From contig JBAWWL010000010.1 of the NCBI GenBank assembly GCA_037146775.1, positions 12,963-76,962 of the forward strand: DNA of 64,000 nt, in the 5' to 3' direction. A program made the position numbers and the translations under genes. Source of the DNA: Candidatus Omnitrophota bacterium. Lineage in GTDB: Bacteria > Omnitrophota > Gorgyraeia > Duberdicusellales > 4484-171. Below are positions 4,631 through 57,034 of the stretch, piece by piece (positions within the stretch are counted from its first letter, which is position 1; each line of letters begins with the position of its first letter). The notes beneath the pieces are model-generated. The model did no database searches, had not been told where the DNA came from, and saw nothing but the letters and a program-made list of their open reading frames with translations.

Positions 4631-5128
4631 TTATTTCTTCTTTTTATATAAAACAGTATCGTCAAGAAACCACTTTTTATTGGATTTAATAGCCAATATA
4701 TCAGAAACCAGATAGATACCTTGTGCGATATCGTCTGTGTCGATATCCTTGATTTCGAGCGCTGTGTAGAGGCAGGTTGGAATGCAAGATTGATTGTTTC
4801 TACTTATGCAATAATCGCATTTAGAGTCAAAAAATTTTAAAAAATCTGCAAAAATGACGCCAAAAGGGCAAGCAATAGAACAGGTTTTGCATCCGGTACA
4901 AAGAAAACGCGCACGCTTAATAATACCTTTGTCGTCTCTTGAGAGTGCCTTATGATAACAAGAATTTACGCATGGTGCTTCTTCGCAGTGATGGCAAATT
5001 AATGAAAACGTTGCGAGTTCTCGTAAGGAAGTGATGCCGTTGTTTTGTGGATGGTAAATATAGCTGCATTTTACCACGCATTCCGGGCAGGCATCGCACT
5101 TGTCTAAGTCAATAAATAGTCGTTTCAT
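4631..5128 (-). CDS. 2x[4Fe-4S] ferredoxin subunit (EchF/HycB-like)
   Basis: Four Cys clusters (CDACPECVVKC, CHHCEEAPCVNSC, CTGCKTCSIACP, CDYCISRNNQSCIPTC). Confidence 0.7.
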   Translation of the reverse strand: MKRLFIDLDKCDACPECVVKCSYIYHPQNNGITSLRELATFSLICHHCEEAPCVNSCYHKALSRDDKGIIKRARFLCTGCKTCSIACPFGVIFADFLKFFDSKCDYCISRNNQSCIPTCLYTALEIKDIDTDDIAQGIYLVSDILAIKSNKKWFLDDTVLYKKKK

Positions 5129-5226
5129 ATTGTTTCAGATGTTAGTGTTGAGATGCCAGGCATCAGAGGCCAGATGTCTGATTCGAGAAAAAAATTTATC
5201 TGTTCCCCGGCTCTTGTTTTATATCT

Positions 5227-5359
5227 TCTATCCTCTGTCTTCTGCCTTTTACCCTCTGACTTCTGTCTTCTGATCTCTGTCTCTTGTCCCCTGACTTTTA
5301 TTTTCTATCTTCTGATTTCTGTCCTCTGTCTTCTGACCTCTGATGTCTGACTTCTGTTC
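5227..5359. repeat. Degenerate heptanucleotide tandem array, about 19 units of TCTGNCT
   Basis: Direct reading: tctgtct tctgcct … tctgacc tctgatg tctgact tctgttc. The array abuts the TGA stop of the HydG-like gene. A second copy of the same array lies at 53908..54019. Confidence 0.85.
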
Positions 5360-6181
5360 TCAGTCCCAAATATCCTCTATCTCTTTGATGTCTTCAAACC
5401 GGAATACCGGACCATCTTTGCAAATATAAAATTTGCCTAAACGACAATGGCCGCATTTGCCCAAACCGCAGCTCATATTTTTTTCCATCGAGAGATAAAT
5501 ATTAGTAGGTTGCAATCCTAAATCAAGCAGTTTGAGTGTTGCAAATTTCATCATAATTGGCGGGCCGCAAACTATACCAATCGCTTCGGGTAAGCATAGC
5601 GGCAGCTTATCCAAGAGCGTGGTAACGATGCCCACGTTCCCTTTCCAGGAGTTATCGGCTCGGTCAACAGTGAGCCGGAATTCGACATTATTTTGTTTTT
5701 TGAATTCATCGAGTTGATATTTATATACGATATCTACAGGGCTGCGCGCGCCGTAGCAGATAATAATTTTCTTAAAATCGGTTATACGCGCATAAAGCGC
5801 GTAAATTAAAGAACGCAGTGGCGCCAGTCCAACCCCGCCGCCAACGATGACCAATTCTTTTCCCTTGAAGCTATCAAGCGGGTACCCGTTGCCGTAGGGG
5901 CCGCGTACGCCAAAAATATCGCCTGGTTTAGCTTTGTGGAATAGCTCGGTTACCTTACCCACCCGCATAATGGTTACCTCGAATCCGTCTTTACGGTTAG
6001 GATTGGATGAGGGAGTAAACGGAGCTTCCCCCACCCCGGGGTACGTTAATTCGATAAATTGTCCGGTTTCAAAAGAAAAATTCTCCTCCGGCTTAAAAAT
6101 AAAAGTTTTAATGGTCGGTGTTTCTTCTATAATTTTGGTAACCGTAACTTTCTCGGGCAGATAAATTTGTTTAGTTTTCAT
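5360..6181 (-). CDS. FAD/NAD(P)-binding oxidoreductase with C-terminal 2Fe-2S (sulfhydrogenase gamma HydG / AsrB / PyrK-like)
   Basis: Ferredoxin-NADP-reductase-like fold signatures (GGGVGLAPL). C-terminal CGLGKCGHCRLG…C motif as in PyrK/HydG. Confidence 0.7.
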   Translation of the reverse strand: MKTKQIYLPEKVTVTKIIEETPTIKTFIFKPEENFSFETGQFIELTYPGVGEAPFTPSSNPNRKDGFEVTIMRVGKVTELFHKAKPGDIFGVRGPYGNGYPLDSFKGKELVIVGGGVGLAPLRSLIYALYARITDFKKIIICYGARSPVDIVYKYQLDEFKKQNNVEFRLTVDRADNSWKGNVGIVTTLLDKLPLCLPEAIGIVCGPPIMMKFATLKLLDLGLQPTNIYLSMEKNMSCGLGKCGHCRLGKFYICKDGPVFRFEDIKEIEDIWD

Positions 6182-7275: not shown

Positions 7276-8184
7276 TCAAGGATTATCGCGACCTATTTTG
7301 TCAAAACCGGATAAAAAATCTCGCATGGCTGACAGGCATTCGTTAGTTTTTTCTAGAAAATGGGTATGTGAAGCATCCTCTATAATGCGCAGTATTGAAC
7401 CCGGAAGCATAGTTTGATAATAGGCGGTTGTTACGGGGCGTGCTTCATCGTAGCGTCCAGCCAGGAATAATGTAGGAATATTTATCTTGTGCAGGTCGTG
7501 TGCGCGTTCGTAATCTTTGAGTGTTCCGGTGCAGGTAAATTCGCTCGGTCCCCACATTTTGGTGTAGATAGTTGAATTTATTCTTGCAAAGGTTTTTTGC
7601 AAACAGTCAGGCCAAGGTTCTAATCGGCACACATGAAGTTTGTAGTACAACATTACTGCGTCTTGGTATTCTTTAGAATCGTAAATGCCCCGCTCCTCTG
7701 CTACAGCGACGGCCGATTGAGCATGCGCGGGTAGCTGTCTAAGGTATGCGCGTTGGTCGGCTATCCAGCGGGAAACGCTTAAGCACGGCCCGGAAAGTAT
7801 CATACTGGCGATACCAGAAGGTTGTTTCGTTAAGATGTATTCGATCGCGAGCATTGTTCCCCATGATGTGCCAAGGAGGTGTATAGTTTGTAATTTAAGG
7901 GCGGTACGTATTTGGGAAAGTTCTTCGACGGATCTTTCTAGTGTCCAGAGGCTAGGATCCTGTGGTTGTTCGGAATTGCCGCAACCTAGTTGGTCGTAAA
8001 AGATAACTGGCCGATCGTTACTTAATGTGTGGAGAGGCTCAAGGTAATCATGGGTAGCACCCGGTCCTCCGTGCAGCATCAAGAGAGGGGTTTTCTTTTT
8101 GTTGCGTCCTATAATTTTATACCATGCTTTGCCGCCCGTGACTGGTATAAAATCTTCGACCGTGTCGTTGCGGAAATCGTCCAC
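7276..8184 (-). CDS. Proline iminopeptidase / alpha-beta hydrolase (S33 family)
   Basis: HGGPGATHDY and GTSWGTMLA (GxSxG nucleophile elbow) motifs. 302 aa. Confidence 0.7.
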   Translation of the reverse strand: MDDFRNDTVEDFIPVTGGKAWYKIIGRNKKKTPLLMLHGGPGATHDYLEPLHTLSNDRPVIFYDQLGCGNSEQPQDPSLWTLERSVEELSQIRTALKLQTIHLLGTSWGTMLAIEYILTKQPSGIASMILSGPCLSVSRWIADQRAYLRQLPAHAQSAVAVAEERGIYDSKEYQDAVMLYYKLHVCRLEPWPDCLQKTFARINSTIYTKMWGPSEFTCTGTLKDYERAHDLHKINIPTLFLAGRYDEARPVTTAYYQTMLPGSILRIIEDASHTHFLEKTNECLSAMRDFLSGFDKIGRDNP

Positions 8185-9440: not shown

Positions 9441-10070
9441 TTATACTTCTTTTGGTAAGTTACCAATGTAGCGTTTAATAAGTTCCGCAATATGCGAAAA
9501 ACGGCATTGCGCTAACCATTCTTTTTGAAAAACACTTGCCCCAAAGGTTATCGCGCTAGCACCATTGGTGAAATAGGCGCGCATATTTTCGGGAGTAACT
9601 CCGCCGCACGCTAAAAGCTCTATCGAATCAAAAGGGCCTTTTATTTCCTTAAAGTATTCTGGGCCGAAAAATCTTGCCGGGAATACTTTTACCATGGTTG
9701 CGCCCATGCCCCAGGCAGTATATATCTCCTGAGGAGTAAGTGCGCCAGGAAATACCGGTATATTTTGCTTAAGGCAAGACTTTACGAGTTTTTGCGTGCA
9801 TGTGGGCATTACTATGAATGTTGCACCGGCCCTTAGGGCATTATTGAGTTGTTTTACGGTTAATACCGTTCCGGCGCCGATTGTTAATTTGCCGGAAGCG
9901 ATATTTTTGGCTGTTTTAATCAAATGAACGGCGTTGTCGGTATTCATGGTGATTTCGATAGTTTCGAGGCCGCTTGCAATAATAGTTTCGATGAGCGGTG
10001 TGAGAATCTTGAGGTCAACCCCTCTTAGAATCCCCATGATTGGTTTTTTCCTAAAACGCGCAATATCCAT
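9441..10070 (-). CDS. eda: KDPG / KHG aldolase (2-dehydro-3-deoxy-phosphogluconate aldolase)
   Basis: GILRGVDL … IEITMNT … GAGTVLT … FIVMP motifs typical of the Eda family. 209 aa. Confidence 0.7.
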   Translation of the reverse strand: MDIARFRKKPIMGILRGVDLKILTPLIETIIASGLETIEITMNTDNAVHLIKTAKNIASGKLTIGAGTVLTVKQLNNALRAGATFIVMPTCTQKLVKSCLKQNIPVFPGALTPQEIYTAWGMGATMVKVFPARFFGPEYFKEIKGPFDSIELLACGGVTPENMRAYFTNGASAITFGASVFQKEWLAQCRFSHIAELIKRYIGNLPKEV

Positions 10071-45436: not shown

Positions 45437-45901
45437 TTAGCTTTTGTTTTTACGGTTGGTATCTTTCTTGAAAGCTGTATCTATATTTTCTTTCAAGTGT
45501 TTTGCTTTCTTCATTAATTCAATCAATTCGTCTTCTTTCTCGTGCGGTAAATCTTGCGGTTTAACTTCATAAGCCTTTATCAAATTATCAATTACATTTT
45601 GAGCATGTCGAAGAGCAATACGCTGCATATCCTCTTTGGTAATTTTTCGGCTTTTGAGCTTCACTCTCGGACCGGTATAAAAACCTGCTTCTTCCATGTC
45701 GGGGCCATTGTCTTCGTCGTAAGACGCGCTTGTTTCTATTACCTCAAACCTGTGATCTTTTTTGAAAAAATACAAAAAGTCATCGTAGCTTGAAAACTTG
45801 CCGTTAACCGAAGACTCCTTCCATAGCTTTTTTATCGGAACATAGAAATCTTCAGCCTGTTTAAGAATGGTTATAATTTTAGTTAATACCTCTTTCTCCA
45901 T
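45437..45901 (-). CDS. Hypothetical protein
   Basis: 154-aa charged ORF with no motif. Confidence 0.3.
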   Translation of the reverse strand: MEKEVLTKIITILKQAEDFYVPIKKLWKESSVNGKFSSYDDFLYFFKKDHRFEVIETSASYDEDNGPDMEEAGFYTGPRVKLKSRKITKEDMQRIALRHAQNVIDNLIKAYEVKPQDLPHEKEDELIELMKKAKHLKENIDTAFKKDTNRKNKS

Positions 45902-46020
45902 TTTAAAAATAAACGATCGAGCGTCGATTCCGCTCCGAGAGTAAGAGACGGTTGATAAATTGATGTAACGGGCGATGCTTAATTCGTGCTACGTATTTAT
46001 TAATGTTTATTGATTTATCT

Positions 46021-46088
46021 GACATCTGAAGGTCTGACCCCTAGTAGATTTTGTGACATCTGAAGGTCTGACCCCTAGTAGATTTTGG
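46021..46088. repeat. Perfect tandem duplication, 2 x 34 bp (gacatctgaaggtctgacccctagtagattttg)
   Basis: Copy 2 contains the last three codons and the stop codon (cta on plus) of gene 46075..46755. Copy 1 lies immediately 3' of it. Confidence 0.85.
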
Positions 46089-46755
46089 AAAGATTTTCTA
46101 TGCCTATTCCAGTATTGCCCGGCGTTGCCCAGCGGCCTATTAATATTTTATCCTCAATTTTATAGTCAACCACGCCTGTATTTTGTCCCACGCCCCAGCT
46201 TACGATCAATAAATCACCCTCAAGAATGCCTATCCCGGAATAACTTTCGGACAATAATGACCAGTTTACTGAATATATTTCGCCATTCTTATTGATTGAA
46301 ACGGTTCCGGCATAATTGCTGCCAGTGTCGGGGTTGTACGCATTGGTTATTTTATATACGCCGCCAAGGCCAGCCGGACCCTCTAAATCTTCCGTGCCGA
46401 TTGAGCCAGATTTTGAACTTGCCCACTTACCTTTTAATTTTGATCCTTCTATTTTATAGGCCACCACCCCGCAATGTGCGCCGGCGTTCCAGCCTACGCA
46501 AAGAACGTTATCGACCAGTATCCCGATACCTTCGTATATGGTAAATTGCGGAACCTTCCAGACGAGCTTATATGTTTCTCCTAGATTAATAATTTGAAGA
46601 ATGCCGGTATACTTTGTTTTGTCCGGATTTACCCCGTAAATTATCTCATACTTTCCCGATAAATCCTTGCGGGGAGAAGCGCTGGTGTCGGCAGGAAAAA
46701 CATTACCGCCAAAGAACACAAACGTCAACAATAGCAGTAGTATAAACTTTCTCAA
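46075..46755 (-). CDS. Secreted hypothetical protein with two internal repeats
   Basis: Signal peptide. Repeats …GVVAYKIEGSKLKGKWASSKSGSIGTEDLE… and …GVVDYKIEDKILIGRWATPGNTGIGIENL…. Confidence 0.4.
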   Translation of the reverse strand: MRKFILLLLLTFVFFGGNVFPADTSASPRKDLSGKYEIIYGVNPDKTKYTGILQIINLGETYKLVWKVPQFTIYEGIGILVDNVLCVGWNAGAHCGVVAYKIEGSKLKGKWASSKSGSIGTEDLEGPAGLGGVYKITNAYNPDTGSNYAGTVSINKNGEIYSVNWSLLSESYSGIGILEGDLLIVSWGVGQNTGVVDYKIEDKILIGRWATPGNTGIGIENLSKIY

Positions 46756-49059: not shown

Positions 49060-50340
49060 TTAGCGGGAAGACGTGGTTTTTGGTTTTTTCGGTTTGATGC
49101 TGGGGTGGGTAAAAAAATCTTTCAGCACAGAAAAGGCTTTTTTCGGTATCCTTTCATCGAGGGTGTCTTCCAGTTTCATTTTTAAACTTACAATGCCGAA
49201 CCATTCTTCGTTCATGTTCAGGCCGGTAGAAACTCTGATATCATGGTAATAAGCTCCGTTAGACCAGCCGGCTTCCGAGTTATGAAGAACCCATTCTGAG
49301 GTGTATCCTTCATTGTGTTTCCACCACTCGTCGTTCCACTCAAAAAGAGCACCGCCAATGCAATTCCCTTCTTTATTACCGCTTGAGACGGTATTGGCAT
49401 AAATGTCCTGCCATTGCGAGAGCACATACTCGGCTTGAGTTTCTTGATCTTCTTTATTCTTGTAGGAGTCGTAGCTGTCCGCGCCAAACTCAGAAAGAAA
49501 AATCGGCTTATCAAAAACATTTTTAACATGGCGAAAAAGATTTCCGAATGTTTTACCGCGATAAGCTATGATTGCCAAAACATCGATATTTTTACAGATA
49601 CGTGCGGCGATATCGAGGAAGTTCGCTTCGCCGTTACCAAGGGCAATCGGATGTACGGGGTCAATCTTTTTTATTTCCGCAGCTAACTCATCGGCAAACG
49701 TATAATAGATTTCTGCCCGGCGGGCAATTTGATTACACGGTTCTTTAATCTGCTCTATTTCGGGAGAGGTCCAGAAGCAGATTTTACCCGCAAAGGTATA
49801 ATTGTTTTCATTACCCAATACCCACATTAAGAGACCTTTTTCGTTTTTGAGGGCTTCGACAATTTTTAATATCCGCTCTTTGGTTTTTTGTTGAAAAGTT
49901 GAGTCGGCATAGTTTGGGCCGGGGTATGTCCAGAGCCCCATCCAATCGCTCACGATCGTATAAATACCGAATTTCTCGTACATGTCGCGAATGAATTCTT
50001 TTGTTTTTTCTATGTCGTTGCCAACGCTATAAATACGTACGCAATTAACACCAAGCTTTTTCATGAGTTTGCCGTCAGCGAGCCACGGCTTTTTACTATC
50101 CGCAAGAAAATCGTAATCGTAGCCTTTACCGATTGGTGTGGGGTTGTAAATAAGGCCTTTCAGGAATACCGGTTTACCTTTTATGTAAAGACAGTATCCC
50201 CCTTCTTTGGTAGCTTCAATAACCACGCTTGCCACCTGGCTAAAGGCGTTGAAAAATAGCAGGCAGCCTAATAAAAGGCTGCCTGCTATCACAATAAGTT
50301 TACTCTTTTTCGTATCTAATGTCATCGAGGTAGAACACAA
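49060..50340 (-). CDS. Clan GH-A TIM-barrel glycoside hydrolase (GH5/GH2-like)
   Basis: Signal peptide. GVNCVRIY, WVLGNENNY (acid/base NE) and FLSEFG (nucleophile E) motifs. Paralogous to the C-terminal domain of 51624..54023. Confidence 0.55.
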   Translation of the reverse strand: MCSTSMTLDTKKSKLIVIAGSLLLGCLLFFNAFSQVASVVIEATKEGGYCLYIKGKPVFLKGLIYNPTPIGKGYDYDFLADSKKPWLADGKLMKKLGVNCVRIYSVGNDIEKTKEFIRDMYEKFGIYTIVSDWMGLWTYPGPNYADSTFQQKTKERILKIVEALKNEKGLLMWVLGNENNYTFAGKICFWTSPEIEQIKEPCNQIARRAEIYYTFADELAAEIKKIDPVHPIALGNGEANFLDIAARICKNIDVLAIIAYRGKTFGNLFRHVKNVFDKPIFLSEFGADSYDSYKNKEDQETQAEYVLSQWQDIYANTVSSGNKEGNCIGGALFEWNDEWWKHNEGYTSEWVLHNSEAGWSNGAYYHDIRVSTGLNMNEEWFGIVSLKMKLEDTLDERIPKKAFSVLKDFFTHPSIKPKKPKTTSSR

Positions 50341-51475
50341 CCCCTTCAGGATCGTTTACGTCAATATTTGTTGCCCAACAGAATCCGCCAATTACATAAG
50401 AAAGGTCTTTTCCTTTGAGGTCGATCTCATATTTTTTCCAGTCCTTTGTAAGCTGTACCGGACCGATGCTGGCACTGTCGGAGTCCGCGTGTTCGCCGCT
50501 ATTGATGCCGCCCATTTTGAATTCGTTGATAGTTTCTCCGCCTTTTTCGCCTCGTGCCCAGAAAGTAACTTTCGTTGCGCCCTGGAGGTTAAAGCCGGCG
50601 TTAGGAACGGTTCCCCAGTTGTTGGCCGGTTGCTGCCAATACATACCTGCCCAGCGAGTTCCGGAATTGTTGCGATATTCAATGCGAACGCAGGAAGTGC
50701 CGCTAAAGGGCAAATTCTTCCAATTTACGTCTAATTTTAAGTCTTTCGCCGCGGTAGCAGGCATCCATCCGGAAGGAATAAAATGGTTATCTAAGCTTGA
50801 AGCATCCGCATATACATAGAAAGGAAAATTGGTTTTTGCTTCTTCTTTCTTTAAGCCAGCGTCAACGGTGAAATAAATATCATCTAAATAAATCGATTGC
50901 TCTCCGCCGGCCTGGTCCGCGTTAAACACGATACAAAACCCGCCGTTAATGTAATGCATATCCTTTCCGGTGAGGTTAATCGAATATTGCTGCCAATCTT
51001 TCGTTAATTTAACCGGGCCGTATTCGACAGTAGTGGAATCGGGAAACTGTACTGTTTCACCTGCGGTAGTTTTAATTATGCCGCCAATTTTTATCGAGGT
51101 AATAACTTCTCCGCCTTTTTCGCCTTTTGCCCAAAACACAAGTTTGTTGAAACCGGTTAAATCGACGCCGGTATCCTTTGCGCCCCAGTTATTCTGTGAG
51201 GATTGCCAGTAAATACCTGTCCAACCCTGGCCTTGAGTCTTTTTTGCGGCATAGGTTATCTTCATACATGATGTGCCGCGAGCACCTACGGTTTCTTGGT
51301 CATTAAATTTTAAATCGCCGAAATCGCCCATCCAGCCGGAAGGAATAAAATGGTTGCCGGTTGCGCCCTTGTCGCTATAGACGTCAAACCGTTTTTCTTC
51401 TTTTTTTTCCTCGGCTGCCAGGACGCCGCTTATTACCAACATACACCCGAGTATCACAAGTAAAATCTTACGCAT
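50300..51475 (-). CDS. Secreted protein with two tandem carbohydrate-binding-module-like domains
   Basis: Internal duplication: …NHFIPSGWMGDFGD…GTSCMKITY…WTGIYWQSSQNNWG…FWAKGEKGGE… versus …NHFIPSGWMPATAA…GTSCVRIEY…WAGMYWQQPANNWG…FWARGEKGGE…. Confidence 0.45.
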   Translation of the reverse strand: MRKILLVILGCMLVISGVLAAEEKKEEKRFDVYSDKGATGNHFIPSGWMGDFGDLKFNDQETVGARGTSCMKITYAAKKTQGQGWTGIYWQSSQNNWGAKDTGVDLTGFNKLVFWAKGEKGGEVITSIKIGGIIKTTAGETVQFPDSTTVEYGPVKLTKDWQQYSINLTGKDMHYINGGFCIVFNADQAGGEQSIYLDDIYFTVDAGLKKEEAKTNFPFYVYADASSLDNHFIPSGWMPATAAKDLKLDVNWKNLPFSGTSCVRIEYRNNSGTRWAGMYWQQPANNWGTVPNAGFNLQGATKVTFWARGEKGGETINEFKMGGINSGEHADSDSASIGPVQLTKDWKKYEIDLKGKDLSYVIGGFCWATNIDVNDPEGVVFYLDDIRYEKE

Positions 51476-51623: not shown

Positions 51624-54023
51624 TCAATTGTCTTTCCACAATCCTTTATAGGTAAGGTATGCCTTTTTTAATGTACGTAAAAAAGGAGATTGTTTACCTT
51701 CGCCTTGGCCTACAACGCCAAGCCATTCTTCATGCATATAACCATCCAGAAAAGGCCCCGTAAAAAGGCCTTTGCGGTCATGATGCCATGGTTTATAGGA
51801 TTTCCACCACTCATCCGTCCATTCGAACACGAATCCGCCGATTGCATTTCCTGTGCCATATCCGCTTGAGTTGCAGGCAATATCCAGCCAGGCGTTGCGA
51901 TGGTATTCAGCCTGAAAAGATTCGGATTCTTCCATGGAATATCCTTGTGCATAAGAAGGTGCGCCATATTCGGTAATCATTGCGGCCCTACTCGATGTAT
52001 TTTTGACTTCATCCCAAAAATCAAAGAATCCGTATTTTCCTCGGTAACAGTTTGTTCCAAACACATCAATATCGGGACAGTTTTTAGCAAAAACATCCAG
52101 GAACAGCGCATCCCCTGACGCAATACCAACCGGCCGCTTAAGGGGGTCGAGTTGTTTTATTAACTTTGCTGCTTCGTTTGCGAATTTAAAAAAACTTTCC
52201 GGCTTTTTGTCGGCATTACACGCAACGCCGTACACATTCTCGTTTCCTAAAAGCCACATGATGATACCGGGTTCGTCCTTGAATTCGGTAACCATTTCCC
52301 GTACACTTGAGAGCATATTTTCTTGATGAGCAGGATCGTCGTAGTCAGTTCCCGGTTCCCATGGCGCTTTACTTCCGAGGGCGTATTTTCCCAAAAAATC
52401 GCCCAATACTGTATATATACCATATTTTTGGTACATTTGTCGAATAAGTTCTTTATTTATTTTAAATGGCTGGTGATATAGCCGTACGCAGTTAACTCCC
52501 ATATTTTTCATGAGATAAAAGTCACCGACTGTCTTTTCCCCTGCGTCTTGTATGCCGTTTGCGTTTTCGTCCACCCAGGTTTCGTAGGGAGCGTCGATGG
52601 TATTGTTATTGTTTACATCCTGGATACTCCAGTTTTGTTGAGTGCCTTTATCGGGAGATTCGCCAACACGGGTAGGGGCGTAAGTGACTCCTTTTATGAT
52701 AAATGGTTTTCCGTCAACCAGAAATTGCCAATCCCCGTTTTCGTAACGCACTATCTTTACTTTTTCTCCGCCTCTGGTTTCAACGATTTTACCCGGTTTC
52801 CGGTATTTTTCCTGCGCAGGGCATAGATTGGTCTTTAAGCATAACTTTTGCAGTATGTTTGCTTTAACTAATTTCCCCGGATTGACTATAAAAATATCGT
52901 TTCGTATGTCATTATCAAAGCCATTTATTACCTTTATCGAAGCGCCCTCCAACCTCAAGCCTAATTCCGGATTTTCCCGCAAGAGATGTTTGATCCGGTA
53001 CAGGCTTGCTTTGCCGATATACCAAGGCGTGTGCCAGTATGTCCATCCGTACGCAGTCGGAAAATGGACCAATACCGCATAGTAAGCTTTAATGGCTTGC
53101 TTTGTGAGTCCGCTGCGTTCCAGAATGTCGGCAATAAAAAATTGTTTTACCCCCCACGGTTCGGGGGCAATATTCCATTTATAAAATGCGGTCTTAAAAT
53201 CGCGACTATTTAAAATATTCCAGTGTTCGACAGTGCCTATTTCTTTTTTTATTTTAATGAATTCAGGGTCAAATTTAAGTGAGCTGGAATTTGGGTAAAT
53301 TCCTTCGCCTACGGCGTTCGATAAACCGATTTGGTCTTTAATTATGTACTGGTATTCTTTGGTCCCGGCACCTTTAAATTCGCCATACTTGGTATAATCA
53401 ACCGGAAAGATACCCGGGTCATATAGCTCAATAAGTATTGATTTTTCTAAAACGTTTGGTGCCTCAGTGTCGGTTCCTTTGATCTCGTCCAGGACTTTTT
53501 CTGCAGTCTCTTTTATGGACCAGAAAGTTCCGCGTGAAGGGTCGAATGCTTGCGCGTAGGGGTATTTTTTTGTCACTTCTTCAAGTATTTTTGCCGCCTC
53601 ATCAATTTTATTTTCGTCACGCAGGCTTTCGCCTTTGATAAAGTAACTTATCGCTACATCATCCATTATTTTGAAGGCGGTTTCCTCATTTTGAGGAGGG
53701 AATTTTTGGAGTGTTGCGGCAAGTTTATCGGCTTCGGCTGAGAACTTGAAAATGCATTCGTCGGTAACCTTATACACTTCTTCGTATTTCTTTTCTCCTT
53801 GCAGTGCCCATGCCTTTTTTACATATTCGGAAGAGTCTTCTTGTTGCGCAAAACAGACCAAAGACCAAAAACTAAAGATTAAAGACAAAAAACAGACAAC
53901 AGAAAAATCTGCCTTTTGGCCTCTGCCCTCTGACTTCTGACTTCTGCCTTCTGCCTTCTGTCCTCTGGCTTCTGTCTTCTGCCTTCTGTCCTCTGACCTC
54001 TGACCTCTGTCCTCTGTCTTCAT
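51624..54023 (-). CDS. Membrane-anchored clan GH-A glycoside hydrolase with N-terminal heptad-repeat (RGQKSEG)n extension
   Basis: The ATG overlaps the stop of the upstream permease (ATGA). N-terminus is MKTEDRGQRSEDRRQKTEARGQKAEGRSQKSEGRGQKAD, followed by a hydrophobic anchor FSVVCFLSLIFSFWSLVCFA. C-terminal domain has VNCVRLY, WLLGNENVY and ITEYG. Confidence 0.55.
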   Translation of the reverse strand: MKTEDRGQRSEDRRQKTEARGQKAEGRSQKSEGRGQKADFSVVCFLSLIFSFWSLVCFAQQEDSSEYVKKAWALQGEKKYEEVYKVTDECIFKFSAEADKLAATLQKFPPQNEETAFKIMDDVAISYFIKGESLRDENKIDEAAKILEEVTKKYPYAQAFDPSRGTFWSIKETAEKVLDEIKGTDTEAPNVLEKSILIELYDPGIFPVDYTKYGEFKGAGTKEYQYIIKDQIGLSNAVGEGIYPNSSSLKFDPEFIKIKKEIGTVEHWNILNSRDFKTAFYKWNIAPEPWGVKQFFIADILERSGLTKQAIKAYYAVLVHFPTAYGWTYWHTPWYIGKASLYRIKHLLRENPELGLRLEGASIKVINGFDNDIRNDIFIVNPGKLVKANILQKLCLKTNLCPAQEKYRKPGKIVETRGGEKVKIVRYENGDWQFLVDGKPFIIKGVTYAPTRVGESPDKGTQQNWSIQDVNNNNTIDAPYETWVDENANGIQDAGEKTVGDFYLMKNMGVNCVRLYHQPFKINKELIRQMYQKYGIYTVLGDFLGKYALGSKAPWEPGTDYDDPAHQENMLSSVREMVTEFKDEPGIIMWLLGNENVYGVACNADKKPESFFKFANEAAKLIKQLDPLKRPVGIASGDALFLDVFAKNCPDIDVFGTNCYRGKYGFFDFWDEVKNTSSRAAMITEYGAPSYAQGYSMEESESFQAEYHRNAWLDIACNSSGYGTGNAIGGFVFEWTDEWWKSYKPWHHDRKGLFTGPFLDGYMHEEWLGVVGQGEGKQSPFLRTLKKAYLTYKGLWKDN
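53908..54019. repeat. Degenerate heptanucleotide tandem array, about 16 units of TCTGNCT (second copy, inside CDS)
   Basis: tctgcct … tctgacc tctgacc tctgtcc tctgtct. Same unit and phase as the 5227..5359 array. Encodes the 7-aa repeats of the GH N-terminus. Confidence 0.85.
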
Positions 54024-54856
54024 CCCACCACCGCTCCGGCAGTTAAACCTTTAATGATTTGTTTCTGCATCCGCAGGTATAGCAATATAATAGGAAGAGC
54101 TGCTACCGCTAAAGCTGCCATAATCAAGGTGTGTTGGATGATATTACGGTTATAGATTTCCATTAACCCTACCTGTAGCGGCATTAGTTTATCTTCGGTA
54201 AACATCAATGACGCAAGCACGAATTCATTCCAGACGTTAAGTGTATTAAAAATAATTACCACAGCTAATGCCGGAGCTACAAGCGGCAGTCCGACATTCC
54301 ACCAGATTTGCAAACGGTTGCAACCGTCAATTCTGGCGGCATCCTCGAGATCGCGCGGTAATTGATCAAAAAAGGTGCGCAGCATATAGATACTTAAAGA
54401 AAGCCCCATATTGGTCATTGCCAGAATATAGCCGGTTCGGTTAATGAGATGCAGTTTATTGAGTAAGATGTAGACAGGCACGAAACCCGCAGGTAAGGGG
54501 ATCATCATTGCCGCTAAAAACATGAAAAATATAACGTTTTTACCGGGAAAATTCAAACGCGAAAACGAATAGGCGGCAAGCGAAGAAATAATCACGATCA
54601 AAAAGACCGTTACGATCGTATAAAAGACGCTGTTGACAAAATATGAGCCAAGATTGCCGTCGACGAGCGCGGTTTTGTAATTGTCGACGTTGAATCGCGT
54701 AACTGGTTTAAGGCCGAAATCACTACGGAATTCCTGCTCGGTCTTGAGTGATACATTAAGCATCCAGATGAGCGGGAAAATACAGCTTAGCGCTACGCTT
54801 AAAAGGAATAAGTGCAGAAACAGGAGAATGAATATTTTTTTAGTTCGGTAATACAC
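54020..54856 (-). CDS. Carbohydrate ABC transporter permease (MalG/UgpE-like)
   Basis: EAA-loop region DAARIDGCNRLQIWWNVGLPLVAP. 278 aa, six TM helices. Confidence 0.75.
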   Translation of the reverse strand: MYYRTKKIFILLFLHLFLLSVALSCIFPLIWMLNVSLKTEQEFRSDFGLKPVTRFNVDNYKTALVDGNLGSYFVNSVFYTIVTVFLIVIISSLAAYSFSRLNFPGKNVIFFMFLAAMMIPLPAGFVPVYILLNKLHLINRTGYILAMTNMGLSLSIYMLRTFFDQLPRDLEDAARIDGCNRLQIWWNVGLPLVAPALAVVIIFNTLNVWNEFVLASLMFTEDKLMPLQVGLMEIYNRNIIQHTLIMAALAVAALPIILLYLRMQKQIIKGLTAGAVVG

Positions 54857-55730
54857 CCCAGCGTTTCCTTATTTGTTTGGAGATGTGTAGCATGGTGAAC
54901 GACACGATAATCAATAAAATCCCCAGTACTACTCCTTCGGCGCAAGCTAAACCAACTTGATTACCGCGTAGATGATTATAGATACGCATGACCGGAACCT
55001 GGGTAAGCCCTCCGGCTCCTCTGGTAAGAGCCAGGATCATAGCGAATGCCTGCATAGTGCCTAATATGGTCAAGACGAATACGACGGCAATCACCGGCAT
55101 CAGAAGCGGGAAAGTGACCCGGCAAAATGTTTGCCAGGCGTTGGCGCCGTCAATACGCGCGGCTTCATATAATTGTTCCGGAATAGTTTGTAACCCGGCA
55201 AGTAAGATAACGAACGCCCAACCAAAACCTTTCCAACAGTGGACCAGGGCAGTGGTGAGAAGTACTCTGTCTTTTCCTAGCCAATCGATTGCAAAAAATC
55301 CCAGACCGGCCTTTTTGAGCCACTGGTTGAAAATTCCGGGGTCTGAAACGAGAATTTCTCGCATAAGTAATCCTATAATGATCTCCGACAATACCGGTAA
55401 TATAAAAAATATGACGCGATAAATCTTGCCGGTCCGGGTAGCCCGATCGACTCCGAGTGCCAGGCAAAACGCAAGGATATTCTGAAAAGTAAGCGCCCAG
55501 AAGGTGATGAAGGCGCTGTTATACATCGATTGCCACCAATCTTTATCGTAGAAAAGGATTTCTTTGAAATTAGACCAGCCGACGAATTCCAAAGAAGAAA
55601 TTGCGTCTCCGCGCTGGAAGCTTAGCACGAACGTATAAATGAAGGGGTACACGTAAAAAATACAGAAAATCAAAAAGGCAGGCAGTACAAAGGAAAAATT
55701 TTTAAATTTGTCAGACAGAGAGTCGTGCAT
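54840..55730 (-). CDS. Carbohydrate ABC transporter permease (MalF/UgpA-like)
   Basis: EAARIDGANAWQTFCRVTFPLLMP motif. 296 aa. Confidence 0.75.
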   Translation of the reverse strand: MHDSLSDKFKNFSFVLPAFLIFCIFYVYPFIYTFVLSFQRGDAISSLEFVGWSNFKEILFYDKDWWQSMYNSAFITFWALTFQNILAFCLALGVDRATRTGKIYRVIFFILPVLSEIIIGLLMREILVSDPGIFNQWLKKAGLGFFAIDWLGKDRVLLTTALVHCWKGFGWAFVILLAGLQTIPEQLYEAARIDGANAWQTFCRVTFPLLMPVIAVVFVLTILGTMQAFAMILALTRGAGGLTQVPVMRIYNHLRGNQVGLACAEGVVLGILLIIVSFTMLHISKQIRKRWGVLPN

Positions 55731-55741
55731 AATGGAAATAT

Positions 55742-57034
55742 TTATTTTGCCAGTACGCGCTTTTTTACCGCTTGTATTTCGTGTGCTACTTCCTCCGGAG
55801 TTTTAATCCCCATTACAATTTGCTGTAATCCTTTATCGATGACTTCTATTACCCGTGAATCTTCGTTGTATGGCCATATATTGGGATGGGTAAGTATGGT
55901 TAGGTCTTTCAGGAGAGGCTTAAGGACAGTCGGAATATTTTCATCGCAATTACGGATAGCGGGTAGATTATTCGTTTCTTTTATGAGAAATTCTTGCTGT
56001 GGTTTTTCCGTCAACCATTGCAATAACTTTACCGCTTCTTCCTTGTTTGGTGAATGAGAATTTACTATAAACGCGGCGCCCGCTCCGCCCCAGATTTTTG
56101 CGGGAAATTTTTCTGATATTTTTGGCAGCGGAAAAAATCCATAATTTAGGTCCGGACCAAGCTGTTTATATACGTTTACCGTCCAGCTGCCGTTGAATGA
56201 GAAGGCAGCTTGGCCTTTTGAGAATTGGTCTTCTGCTTCTTTGTTGATCATGGTAGTGATATTCGGTGAGAGAATGCCGGCATCTCGTAACTCTGCAAAG
56301 AGCGAAAACACCGTAATCCAATCTTTGTCGGTATAAGGAACCGTTCCTTGGATCGTTTTAAAAAACTTTTCTTCGCCCATAAGGTTTATGGCCCATTCGG
56401 TAGCGAGACAATCTAAAAGCCATCCTTCGCCCCAGCCACACACAAAACCGTTTACTTTCTGGGACGCTTTTATCTTTTTAGCGTATGCTATGAATTCAGC
56501 GAGTGTTTTTGGGGGTTGATTCGGATCAATTCCTGCATCACTAAAAAGCTTTTTATTATAAATAAACTCTATGAGCGTCGTGTCGATGGGAACGCCGTAA
56601 ATACCGGGAGTTACTCCGTATGTATTACCTGGTTTAAAAATTGTGACTTCCAGGGCTTGGTTATAAAACGAATCTTTCCAGGCGTTATTGCCTGCTTCCA
56701 TATAAGGAGTTAAATCTAAAATGTATCCGGCTTTTACAAAAGAACCGACAGTTCTTTTTTCTCCCAGGATACCGAATATTTCCGGCAAATTTCCGGCTCT
56801 GGCTGCGGCGATAACTTTTTGCGAATAAATGTCAGGAGGAAAGAAAAGTTTAAATTCAACATCGATACCGGTTTTTTCTTTGTATTGTTTGGAGAGTGTC
56901 TCGAAGGCTGGTTTTCGGTCGTTCATCCAGTGCCAAATAACGATCTTTTTGGACGTCGATTTTTGCTGGGCACAACCGCTGGCTAACAATAAAATTACCG
57001 TGAGTATTTTTACCAGTCGTAATGCAGGACGCAT
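55742..57034 (-). CDS. Extracellular solute-binding protein (sugar ABC transporter, family 1)
   Basis: Lipoprotein-type signal (LLLASGCAQ). 430 aa with SBP_bac_1-like organisation. Confidence 0.7.
   Translation of the reverse strand: MRPALRLVKILTVILLLASGCAQQKSTSKKIVIWHWMNDRKPAFETLSKQYKEKTGIDVEFKLFFPPDIYSQKVIAAARAGNLPEIFGILGEKRTVGSFVKAGYILDLTPYMEAGNNAWKDSFYNQALEVTIFKPGNTYGVTPGIYGVPIDTTLIEFIYNKKLFSDAGIDPNQPPKTLAEFIAYAKKIKASQKVNGFVCGWGEGWLLDCLATEWAINLMGEEKFFKTIQGTVPYTDKDWITVFSLFAELRDAGILSPNITTMINKEAEDQFSKGQAAFSFNGSWTVNVYKQLGPDLNYGFFPLPKISEKFPAKIWGGAGAAFIVNSHSPNKEEAVKLLQWLTEKPQQEFLIKETNNLPAIRNCDENIPTVLKPLLKDLTILTHPNIWPYNEDSRVIEVIDKGLQQIVMGIKTPEEVAHEIQAVKKRVLAK

Follow-up and report, generated by a model that had tools for sequence, protein, structure and literature searches.

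A candidate signal peptide written by two opposite heptanucleotide repeat arms in a hydrolase gene of Omnitrophota

Dispersed heptanucleotide tandem repeats are known from cyanobacteria as STRR sequences. Other heptamers of this kind include TAACTGA in Beggiatoaceae, Cyanobacteria, and Bacteroidetes (PMC4679880) and GGGAATC in Xanthomonas and Nostoc (PMC4692102), and simple repeats are enriched near the N-termini in bacteria (PMC4692102). Repeats at the leader or the 5′ coding region of single genes have been described for the opa genes of Neisseria, which carry CTCTT pentamers inside the signal-peptide coding region (summarized in bioRxiv 10.1101/2020.09.16.300947); for neuO of Escherichia coli K1, with an AAGACTC heptanucleotide repeat in the 5′ coding region that is ON at unit numbers divisible by three (PMC13001214), about 66% of the sequenced genomes being OFF and switching having been measured within cultures (PMC13001214); and for nanH3 of Gardnerella, in which a poly-C tract stands beside the signal-peptide region of a secreted sialidase (bioRxiv 10.1101/2020.09.16.300947). 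The present analysis concerns a stretch of 64,000 nucleotides from Candidatus Omnitrophota bacterium (assembly GCA_037146775.1, contig JBAWWL010000010.1, positions 12,963 to 76,962; hereafter the window, numbered from its first letter), in which a heptanucleotide array begins a hydrolase gene located behind a sugar ATP-binding cassette (ABC) importer. As judged from the sequence, it is rather likely that the array is translated and forms the first half of a signal peptide built almost wholly of heptanucleotide repeats.

By analogy, the system closest in logic to this locus is that of the Neisseria opa genes. Both have a pyrimidine-rich repeat, with a unit that is not a multiple of three, in the coding region of a leader, giving hydrophobic residues in any frame; opa differs in its 5-nt unit, its single arm within the hydrophobic core, its perfect repeats, its measured switching, and its membership of an adhesin family of host-adapted pathogens. 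Unlike opa, the Omnitrophota leader has two opposite arms that make a charged and a hydrophobic part, the array is imperfect, and the host belongs to an environmental, uncultivated phylum. The likeness to neuO lies in a heptamer that is translated as 7-residue repeats, with the full-length protein obtained at three-unit multiples only (PMC13001214), whereas neuO encodes a cytoplasmic, phage-borne acetyltransferase and its repeat is perfect, present in 3–53 copies, and not a signal peptide (PMC13001214). As with nanH3, a slippage-prone repeat stands at the leader of a secreted hydrolase, the enzyme is lost in a frame-dependent manner, and the gene may be annotated without its signal peptide; the nanH3 tract, however, is a homopolymer that follows the leader and does not encode it. 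By analogy, the locus in the window would be a repeat locus of the opa/neuO kind placed in a setting new for it. Each of its parts has been met before in other systems; what is unusual is that two arms write the whole leader, that the units are locus-specific, that many Omnitrophota lineages are involved, and that the organism is not a pathogen. In the literature searched, the coverage of which was incomplete, neither signal peptides built of heptamers nor arrays of this type in Omnitrophota were found to be reported.

The array had originally been predicted to contain 16 units of TCTGNCT, a count borne out by Tandem Repeats Finder (TRF) and by a pattern search. TCTGNCT on the plus strand is AGNCAGA on the coding minus strand, where the 16 imperfect copies at 53908–54019 read, in order, AGACAGA, GGACAGA, GGTCAGA, GGTCAGA, GGACAGA, AGGCAGA, AGACAGA, and AGCCAGA (units 1–8) and GGACAGA, AGGCAGA, AGGCAGA, AGTCAGA, AGTCAGA, GGGCAGA, GGCCAAA, and AGGCAGA (units 9–16), with three variable positions and a CAGA core that is invariant apart from the CAAA of unit 15. 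TRF reported the array at 53908–54021 with period 7, 16.3 copies, 82% matches, and the consensus TCTGCCT, together with further overlapping rows at periods 14 and 35. The two-unit pattern TCTGNCYTCTGNCY, with at most one mismatch, gave 24 matches in the window, where 0.46 would be expected on the basis of shuffled sequence, and all 24 fell inside two arrays, the one described here and another at 5227–5359. Read with the codon table, the array encodes residues 3–39 of the hydrolase open reading frame (ORF) as five charged heptads of the type E-D/G/A-R-G/R/S-Q-K/R-S/T/A (MKT-EDRGQRS-EDRRQKT-EARGQKA-EGRSQKS-EGRGQKA-D), in exact agreement with the heptad translation first proposed. The arrangement has one feature of opa/neuO-type contingency loci, a unit of a length not divisible by three that is repeated early in the coding sequence and read in the frame of the start codon (16 × 7 nt after ATG 54023). 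Two assemblies, NCBI GCA_964613555.1 and Logan SRR12676968, encode the same 799-residue product and hence the same array length, and this speaks against an error peculiar to one assembly.

The array begins one base past an ATGA overlap between the stop codon of an ABC permease gene and the start of the 799-residue hydrolase ORF, an overlap that had also been recognized in the original prediction. GGAG and GGTGG lie 5–17 nt upstream of ATG 54023. Of the possible start codons ATG, GTG, and TTG, just three stand in frame before the mature protein, namely ATG 54023 and the TTGs at codons 46 and 55. As both TTGs lie within the hydrophobic core, without a Shine-Dalgarno sequence, an alternative downstream start in the window was rejected. 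The conserved mature protein starts at Q60 (QQEDSSEYVKKAW), as in the listed N-termini of orthologues, and the ATGA overlap is kept in the 89%-identical orthologue L081, in L006, and in Candidatus (Ca.) Susulua (loci and proteins are cited by their L and P numbers where they have to be told apart). In the purine orientation T always precedes C, so that a stop codon is impossible in any frame; the open frame is therefore automatic and is no evidence of coding on its own. Translation of the array as the front part of the hydrolase leader, which had been considered plausible, is almost certain, because the mature N-terminus is preceded by no other usable start and the ATGA start is retained in the closest orthologue. 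The comparison with orthologous starts agrees in part: L081 and Ca. Susulua keep the ATGA start, and L006 uses a downstream ATG. To judge from the ATGA overlap, translation of the hydrolase is probably coupled to that of the last permease. No minus-strand promoter-like or terminator-like site was found at the array, and no Rfam family matched it, even at E ≤ 1.

The second arm, which follows the array in the coding direction, consists of degenerate, pyrimidine-rich heptamers (TCTGTTG, TCTGTTT, TTTGTCT … TTGGTCT, TTGGTCT, of the types TTGGTCT and TCTGTYT), is approximately the reverse complement of the purine arm, and appears in TRF as a separate period-7 row at 53855–53890 in the hydrophobic segment. 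In total, 58 of the 59 leader codons are derived from repeats. Residues 1–39, with 12 K/R and 8 D/E, have a net charge of about +4 and are followed by a hydrophobic region (h-region; residues 40–59), which is the order of a Sec-type signal peptide, with a positive N-terminal region (n-region) of about 38 residues that is much longer than usual. The leader ends in C-F-A↓QQEDSS, the arrow marking a putative signal-peptidase site after A59; the orthologues have S/C-F/Y-A↓Q-D/E at the same boundary, including those with ordinary leaders of 25–30 residues, and, immediately ahead of the conserved start of the mature protein, carry a small residue at position −3 and either A or S at −1. This small-x-A/S site at the repeat/mature boundary across orthologues favours a Sec signal peptide that is cleaved, and on this sequence pattern the leader is more likely to be such a peptide than a permanent anchor. 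The coordinates are collected in Table 1.

Table 1 Positions of the leader arms, the hydrolase and importer genes, and the second array in the window
Feature	Position	Strand	Evidence
Purine-rich arm, 16 imperfect AGNCAGA units	53908..54019	-	TRF, pattern search, codon table, unit list
Pyrimidine-rich arm, degenerate heptamers, core FSVVCFLSLIFSFWSLVCFA (residues 40-59)	53847..53906	-	TRF, codon table, fold, orthologue N-termini
ATGA overlap: hydrolase ATG 54021-54023, permease TGA 54020-54022	54020..54023	-	ORFs, codon table; recurs in L081, L006, Susulua
Mature hydrolase, 740 aa + stop; TPR-like N-terminal region, clan-A TIM barrel	51624..53846	-	Pfam, structure-chain match, homologues
ABC permease gene, second, adjoining hydrolase	54020-54856	-	ORF, Pfam BPD_transp_1
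ABC permease gene, first	54840-55730	-	ORF, Pfam BPD_transp_1
Solute-binding protein gene	55742-57034	-	ORF, Pfam SBP_bac_8/1
Second array, ~19 CAGARGN units, TAG/TAA interruptions, non-coding	5224..5361	-	TRF, pattern search, fold

In the proposed mechanism, reading from ATG 54023, the purine arm would give an Arg/Lys/Glu/Gln-rich n-region of about 38 residues with a net positive charge, and the pyrimidine arm would give the 20-residue hydrophobic core ending in the C-F-A↓Q signal-peptidase-type site. The leader would then send the TPR and clan-A hydrolase, encoded behind the sugar ABC importer, out of the cytoplasm, with probable cleavage after A59. As 7 is coprime to 3, all three frames of the array encode one and the same 7-residue peptide; the leader character would survive slippage, and the enzyme would be in frame only at a net change of three-unit multiples. 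Replication slippage or recombination between units presumably creates length alleles, the survivors of which would be mostly in frame and occasionally OFF. More generally, period-7 arrays, often a purine arm with a complementary pyrimidine arm, would accumulate in loosely constrained signal-peptide regions and spacers. Hydrophilic and hydrophobic codons are largely complementary (AGA/TCT, GAA/TTC, CAG/CTG, AAG/CTT, and GAC/GTC), and this explains why a purine arm and its inverse together encode first a charged n-region and then a hydrophobic h-region. Any regulatory or adaptive use of ON/OFF switching would be hypothetical.

That the gain or loss of one or two units would shift the frame had been claimed at the outset, and this arithmetic is right, as Ca. 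Susulua stagnicola shows. Three of its leader alleles, of 147, 168, and 189 nt, have two, three, and four copies of EVKGQRS and are separated by in-frame steps of 21 nt or three units; the fourth, of 133 nt, differs from the allele of locus L019 by a deletion of 35 nt, or five units, between two exact 21-nt repeats. The 133-nt allele is frameshifted, giving a 49-residue product that is still leader-like, and the gene caller starts the hydrolase at Met112. It was confirmed on the DNA in three contigs from three samples (L082, L084, and L085), recurring across samples on slightly different backgrounds of single-nucleotide polymorphisms (SNPs), and two further Susulua contigs encode the same truncated products of 676 residues; true frameshifts at the DNA level were established for the 676-residue Susulua members only. 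Among all Susulua alleles the 2200-nt gene body differs by 0–7 nt, as in a near-clonal population, so that array length is by far the fastest-changing character of the Susulua hydrolase gene, and most of the surviving changes are in frame. Of the phase-variation-like switching first envisaged, an orthologue thus shows ON and OFF length alleles; in the window itself one allele was found, in the ON state, and rapid switching is less obvious because the array is imperfect, a lower slippage rate being predicted than for perfect tracts.

Leaders may also differ as a whole between orthologues. L081, whose hydrolase has 89% protein identity to that of the window and near-identical flanking DNA including the ATGA, has an unrelated sequence between the ATG and the mature start, and leaders are often non-homologous among hydrolases that are at least 90% identical, with up to six unrelated signal peptides and sharp boundaries at the start codon and the cleavage site (protein clusters with swapped leaders include P0004/P0168/P0169/P0171/P0176/P0179 and P0111/P0152/P0154/P0159). 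Many consist of charged heptads followed by (F-C-L-L-S-S-V)n and A↓Q-D/E-S-S, for example MRNSEVRGQRTEDRGQRSKARFSVICFLLSVFCLLSSVFCYA↓QDSS and MRDPEDRGQRTEARGQKSEDRSQIFCFLPSAFCLLFSVFYLLSSVFCYA↓QGSS, FCLLSSV being three TTCTGTC units in the complement orientation of AGACAGA; in others TGGAAAA encodes WKIENGK and is followed by TTTTCCA-type units encoding FSIFYLP. All of the approximately 50 species representatives with a correctly located mature start retain an in-frame leader. Start calls can differ for the same contig (775 residues in P0168 and 741 residues in P0173), for which reason the 741-residue cluster members were rejected as OFF alleles, and since gene callers disagree in this manner on the starts of one contig, secretome predictions for Omnitrophota are probably unreliable. 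Locus L006 is a snapshot of a translated arm becoming a spacer: at 2120–2300 the ATGA and an AGACAGA array are kept, the frame stops after 15 codons at a TAA, and an A-rich, decayed spacer follows the array.

Similar units also occur in different genes of one genome. In L070, TGCCATA units at 2633–2665 and 7700–7732 form the hydrophobic cores of different secreted proteins of the operon, and in L058 (Velamenicoccus archaeovorus LiM), TTTTCTG, TCTGTTT, and TTCTCTG build those of different secreted proteins at 1851–1890, 5799–5826, and 9643–9678; the same or similar units within one genome suggest an exchange of sequence from leader to leader or a shared seed. A whole-library search with the 59-residue leader gave 216 matches, to which no taxonomy was attached, mostly short ORFs called through similar arrays. 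Heptad runs of the RSQKSEV/RGQRTEA type were also observed as in-frame insertions in otherwise normal proteins (P0376, P0301, and P0345), namely a sensor kinase/receiver protein, a glycosyltransferase-like protein, and a membrane protein.

The window locus is one example of a class that recurs across the sampled Omnitrophota. A survey of arrays of at least 3.5 copies in 82 Omnitrophota stretches (978 kilobases in total, with loci picked around the hydrolase family) yielded 93 tandem arrays of period 7 versus 15 of period 6 and 7 of period 8. The period-7 arrays were concentrated in the first 90 codons of ORFs (59 of 93, in 22% of the sequence, p = 2e-17) and between genes (31 of 93, in 7% of the sequence, p = 6e-14); three touched C-terminal ends and none lay in mid-gene. 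That 43 of the 59 5′-end arrays belong to this hydrolase family follows from the choice of loci around it. The other 16 belong to TPR proteins, solute-binding lipoproteins, and further hydrolases, almost all of which have an N-terminus resembling a signal peptide, and a few of these 16 are in fact just upstream of the true start. The median position is residue 10 for purine-rich arrays but residue 27.5 for pyrimidine-rich ones (p = 4e-7), an order that is never reversed, and in 57 orthologous loci autocorrelation peaks at lags of 7, 14, and 21 are present in the leader region and absent from the gene body. The period is constant and the unit varies by locus (AGNCAGA, TGGAAAA, AAAGGAT, CTATGGA, TGCCATA, and others). 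A fixed mobile element of the REP/MITE-like kind was rejected, as no sequence is conserved beyond the period and the order of the arms, which differ in unit and length. The dispersed heptamers (STRR, TAACTGA, and GGGAATC) are genome-wide 7-nt arrays, often located just before a start codon or just behind a stop codon, with 7-nt indel steps between close strains; the period of 7 and the 7-nt steps are common to both groups. The dispersed families differ in having one or a few fixed units per lineage and in being mostly intergenic and essentially non-coding, whereas the Omnitrophota arrays have locus-specific units, lie in signal-peptide coding sequence in about two thirds of the cases, and show a purine arm and then a pyrimidine arm. 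Membership of an STRR- or TAACTGA-type family was rejected on the same grounds, since the units vary and are not CCCCAGT, TTGGTCA, CAACAGT, or TAACTGA, and 59 of the 93 arrays are in coding 5′ ends.

The second array of the window, placed by the original prediction at 5227–5359, is real by TRF and pattern search, with the slightly wider limits given in Table 1. Its dispersal to an unrelated site, which had been regarded as unusual, is not so for the phylum, period 7 dominating the tandem repeats in signal-peptide regions and spacers of many Omnitrophota. The first unit of this array overlaps the TGA stop (5360–5362) of an asrB/hydrogenase-gamma-like gene, and a degenerate inverted arm follows at approximately 5140–5190, before ATG 5128 of a 4Fe–4S gene; the predicted fold of 5128–5362 is modestly more stable than shuffles (z = −2.5 and −2.8). 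A comparable non-coding two-arm module, intergenic (AAGGNAA)x5 and then (TTNNTCC)x4, is found in Ca. Susulua stagnicola (L019, 9598–9676), where it begins at an ATGA junction with the upstream gene and is immediately followed by AAGGAGG and the GTG start of a cytoplasmic-looking gene.

It is quite possible, at somewhat less than an even chance, that the arrays are a neutral by-product, in which slippage-biased heptamers survive where constraint is lax, the ON/OFF changes are merely deleterious, and the charged heptads are without function. The differences in unit between loci and genomes at a fixed period of 7 fit such an origin, as do the absence of arrays from gene bodies and their frequency in spacers, the decay of the L006 purine arm to non-coding sequence, the rarity of OFF alleles, the in-frame insertion of RGQKSE-type repeats in unrelated proteins, and the over-representation of heptamers among bacterial simple repeats, for which a polymerase-footprint cause has been suggested (PMC4692102). 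The strict order of purine before pyrimidine arm and the complementarity beyond composition would, however, need selection or a specific template-switch mechanism, and the Susulua frameshift has been met in more than one sample and with somewhat differing SNPs around it. This explanation overlaps largely with that of a translated repeat leader and differs solely on whether the instability is used.

Several observations weigh against the repeat leader as proposed. The window array is imperfect, its longest exact lag-7 tract being 20 nt, with never more than two adjacent identical units. An exact-flank scan of metagenome contigs, which returned the L081 contig only, revealed no other allele of the window's own lineage, and an exact-protein look-up found the window's allele twice and no second length. 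OFF is one of four length classes in Susulua, where the alleles come from metagenome assemblies in which repeats may have been collapsed by the assembler, and there was no OFF state among the approximately 50 species representatives with a correctly located mature start. OFF alleles are rare in the Omnitrophota hydrolase family, compared with about 66% of genomes in neuO (PMC13001214), and this is more in keeping with purifying selection on a mutable tract than with a switch in actual use. The L006 hydrolase starts at a new ATG, at 2290, and the decay of the purine arm to a non-coding spacer means that the charged heptads are dispensable. Finally, a hydrophobic core of 20 residues (up to 33 in L001) could, on its length, equally serve as an uncleaved anchor.

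This last point leads to an alternative that we regard as unlikely, in which the leader is an uncleaved type-II signal anchor that tethers the enzyme to the inner membrane with the heptads as a permanent cytoplasmic tail. A hydrophobic segment of 20 residues, as in the window, or of 26–33, as in some orthologues (L022 and L001), exceeds what is usual in leaders that are cleaved, and the long positive N-terminus agrees with the positive-inside rule; against this, the small-x-A/S↓Q-D/E site lies at the repeat/mature boundary, also in orthologues with ordinary leaders of 25–30 residues, and the tail is unconserved in sequence, length, and presence even at ~90% protein identity, although a functional cytoplasmic domain would be kept. 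Of the membrane-anchored, signal-anchor enzyme described in the original prediction, the hydrophobic segment is present and the permanent anchoring is unproven, the C-F-A↓Q boundary favouring cleavage. If the leader is cleaved, the heptads are a removable n-region and not a lasting domain on the cytoplasmic face, where the charged repeat had been placed.

Rather improbable, in our estimation, is that the hairpin itself is selected, the arms folding in the mRNA or as a DNA cruciform that gates permease-dependent translation or mRNA stability, with the peptide being incidental. In the predicted RNA fold of the window leader the arms pair (−64.5 kcal/mol, z = −3.4), and folds remain more stable than arm-wise shuffles, which control composition, in all eight loci so treated (z = −3.45 in the window and −1.6 to −6.3 in seven others). 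Modules of two arms are also present in spacers that separate cytoplasmic genes and so have no leader to encode (window 5128–5362 and L019 9598–9676), and the module begins at an ATGA or TGA junction in several loci. An exact inverted repeat was nevertheless rejected, as each arm matches the reverse complement of the other in part only (AGGTCAG versus TCTATCT in Susulua), with a complementarity beyond composition, which is weak at some loci (z = −1.6 and −1.9); many orthologues have one arm or none, Rfam gave no match, and the units are non-homologous between loci, which precludes covariation analysis. Least credible is a non-coding array, 5′ untranslated or intergenic, with the hydrolase start downstream: the purine orientation is free of stops in any frame, so that the open frame comes automatically, gene callers differ on starts at such leaders, and L006 has just this arrangement after its array gained a TAA, but in the window no ATG, GTG, or TTG follows the array until midway through the hydrophobic core, a start at TTG codon 46 or 55, neither with a Shine-Dalgarno sequence, would give a leader lacking an n-region, the ATGA start is kept in L081 and Susulua, and the Susulua alleles step by exactly 21 nt.

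A more far-reaching proposal, which we put forward as doubtful, would join array expansion, inverse copying, continual rebuilding of leaders, and contingency ON/OFF switching into an Omnitrophota-wide, mutation-driven generator of secretion signals. A heptamer array would expand, and a fold-back or template switch would copy it in the inverse orientation; owing to the complementary codons, the pair of arms would automatically read as a charged n-region and a hydrophobic h-region. The leaders of secreted enzymes and binding proteins would be continually rebuilt in this way, would function whichever frame of an array is read, and would serve as contingency switches by which single secreted proteins are turned on or off in a population. 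Such a generator, if it exists, would be useful to tiny, possibly host-attached cells that share public goods.

The genes around the array are all on the minus strand, in the order solute-binding protein, two permeases, hydrolase, and a 391-residue protein, and the order of solute-binding protein, permeases, and hydrolase is common to the orthologous loci. The hydrolase ORF (51624–54023) encodes a protein identical to NCBI MEI8350266.1. It matches Glyco_hydro_2_C of Pfam (PF02836; 1.3e-14, 54.5 bits against a cutoff of 21), with TPR matched weakly, and its closest solved chain is the GH158 structure 9oro (E = 1.9e-10), followed by GH2 beta-glucuronidases; by these matches its sequence falls into clan GH-A with a TIM barrel. 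Against the NCBIfam equivalogs every score was far under the cutoff, and more than 1000 homologues of the hydrolase occur in Omnitrophota, the phylum in which homologues also place the source of the window. The gene after the hydrolase (50300–51475, 391 residues) encodes a duplicated domain of ~190 residues per copy behind an ordinary, non-repeat signal peptide; its product had no Pfam match and only a borderline match to 'choice-of-anchor J' of NCBIfam, and may be a carbohydrate-binding partner of the hydrolase. Elsewhere in the window, a 34-nt tandem duplication (GATTTTGTGACATCTGAAGGTCTGACCCCTAGTA, 2.2 copies, 95% identical) lies at 46012–46087, apparently intergenic between the ORFs 45437–45901 and 46075–46755.

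If the translated repeat leader is confirmed, repeat contingency loci, known from host-adapted pathogens, would also be a feature of a large environmental phylum without cultivated members, and would there concern enzymes of nutrient acquisition rather than antigens. Two opposite short repeats writing a whole signal peptide would represent a route to the de novo origin and rapid turnover of such peptides, and the non-homologous leaders, together with truncated or mis-started gene calls, would affect predictions of the Omnitrophota secretome. The bias towards heptamers outside gene bodies would, in addition, offer a handle on an unexplained and little-studied slippage preference of bacterial replication.

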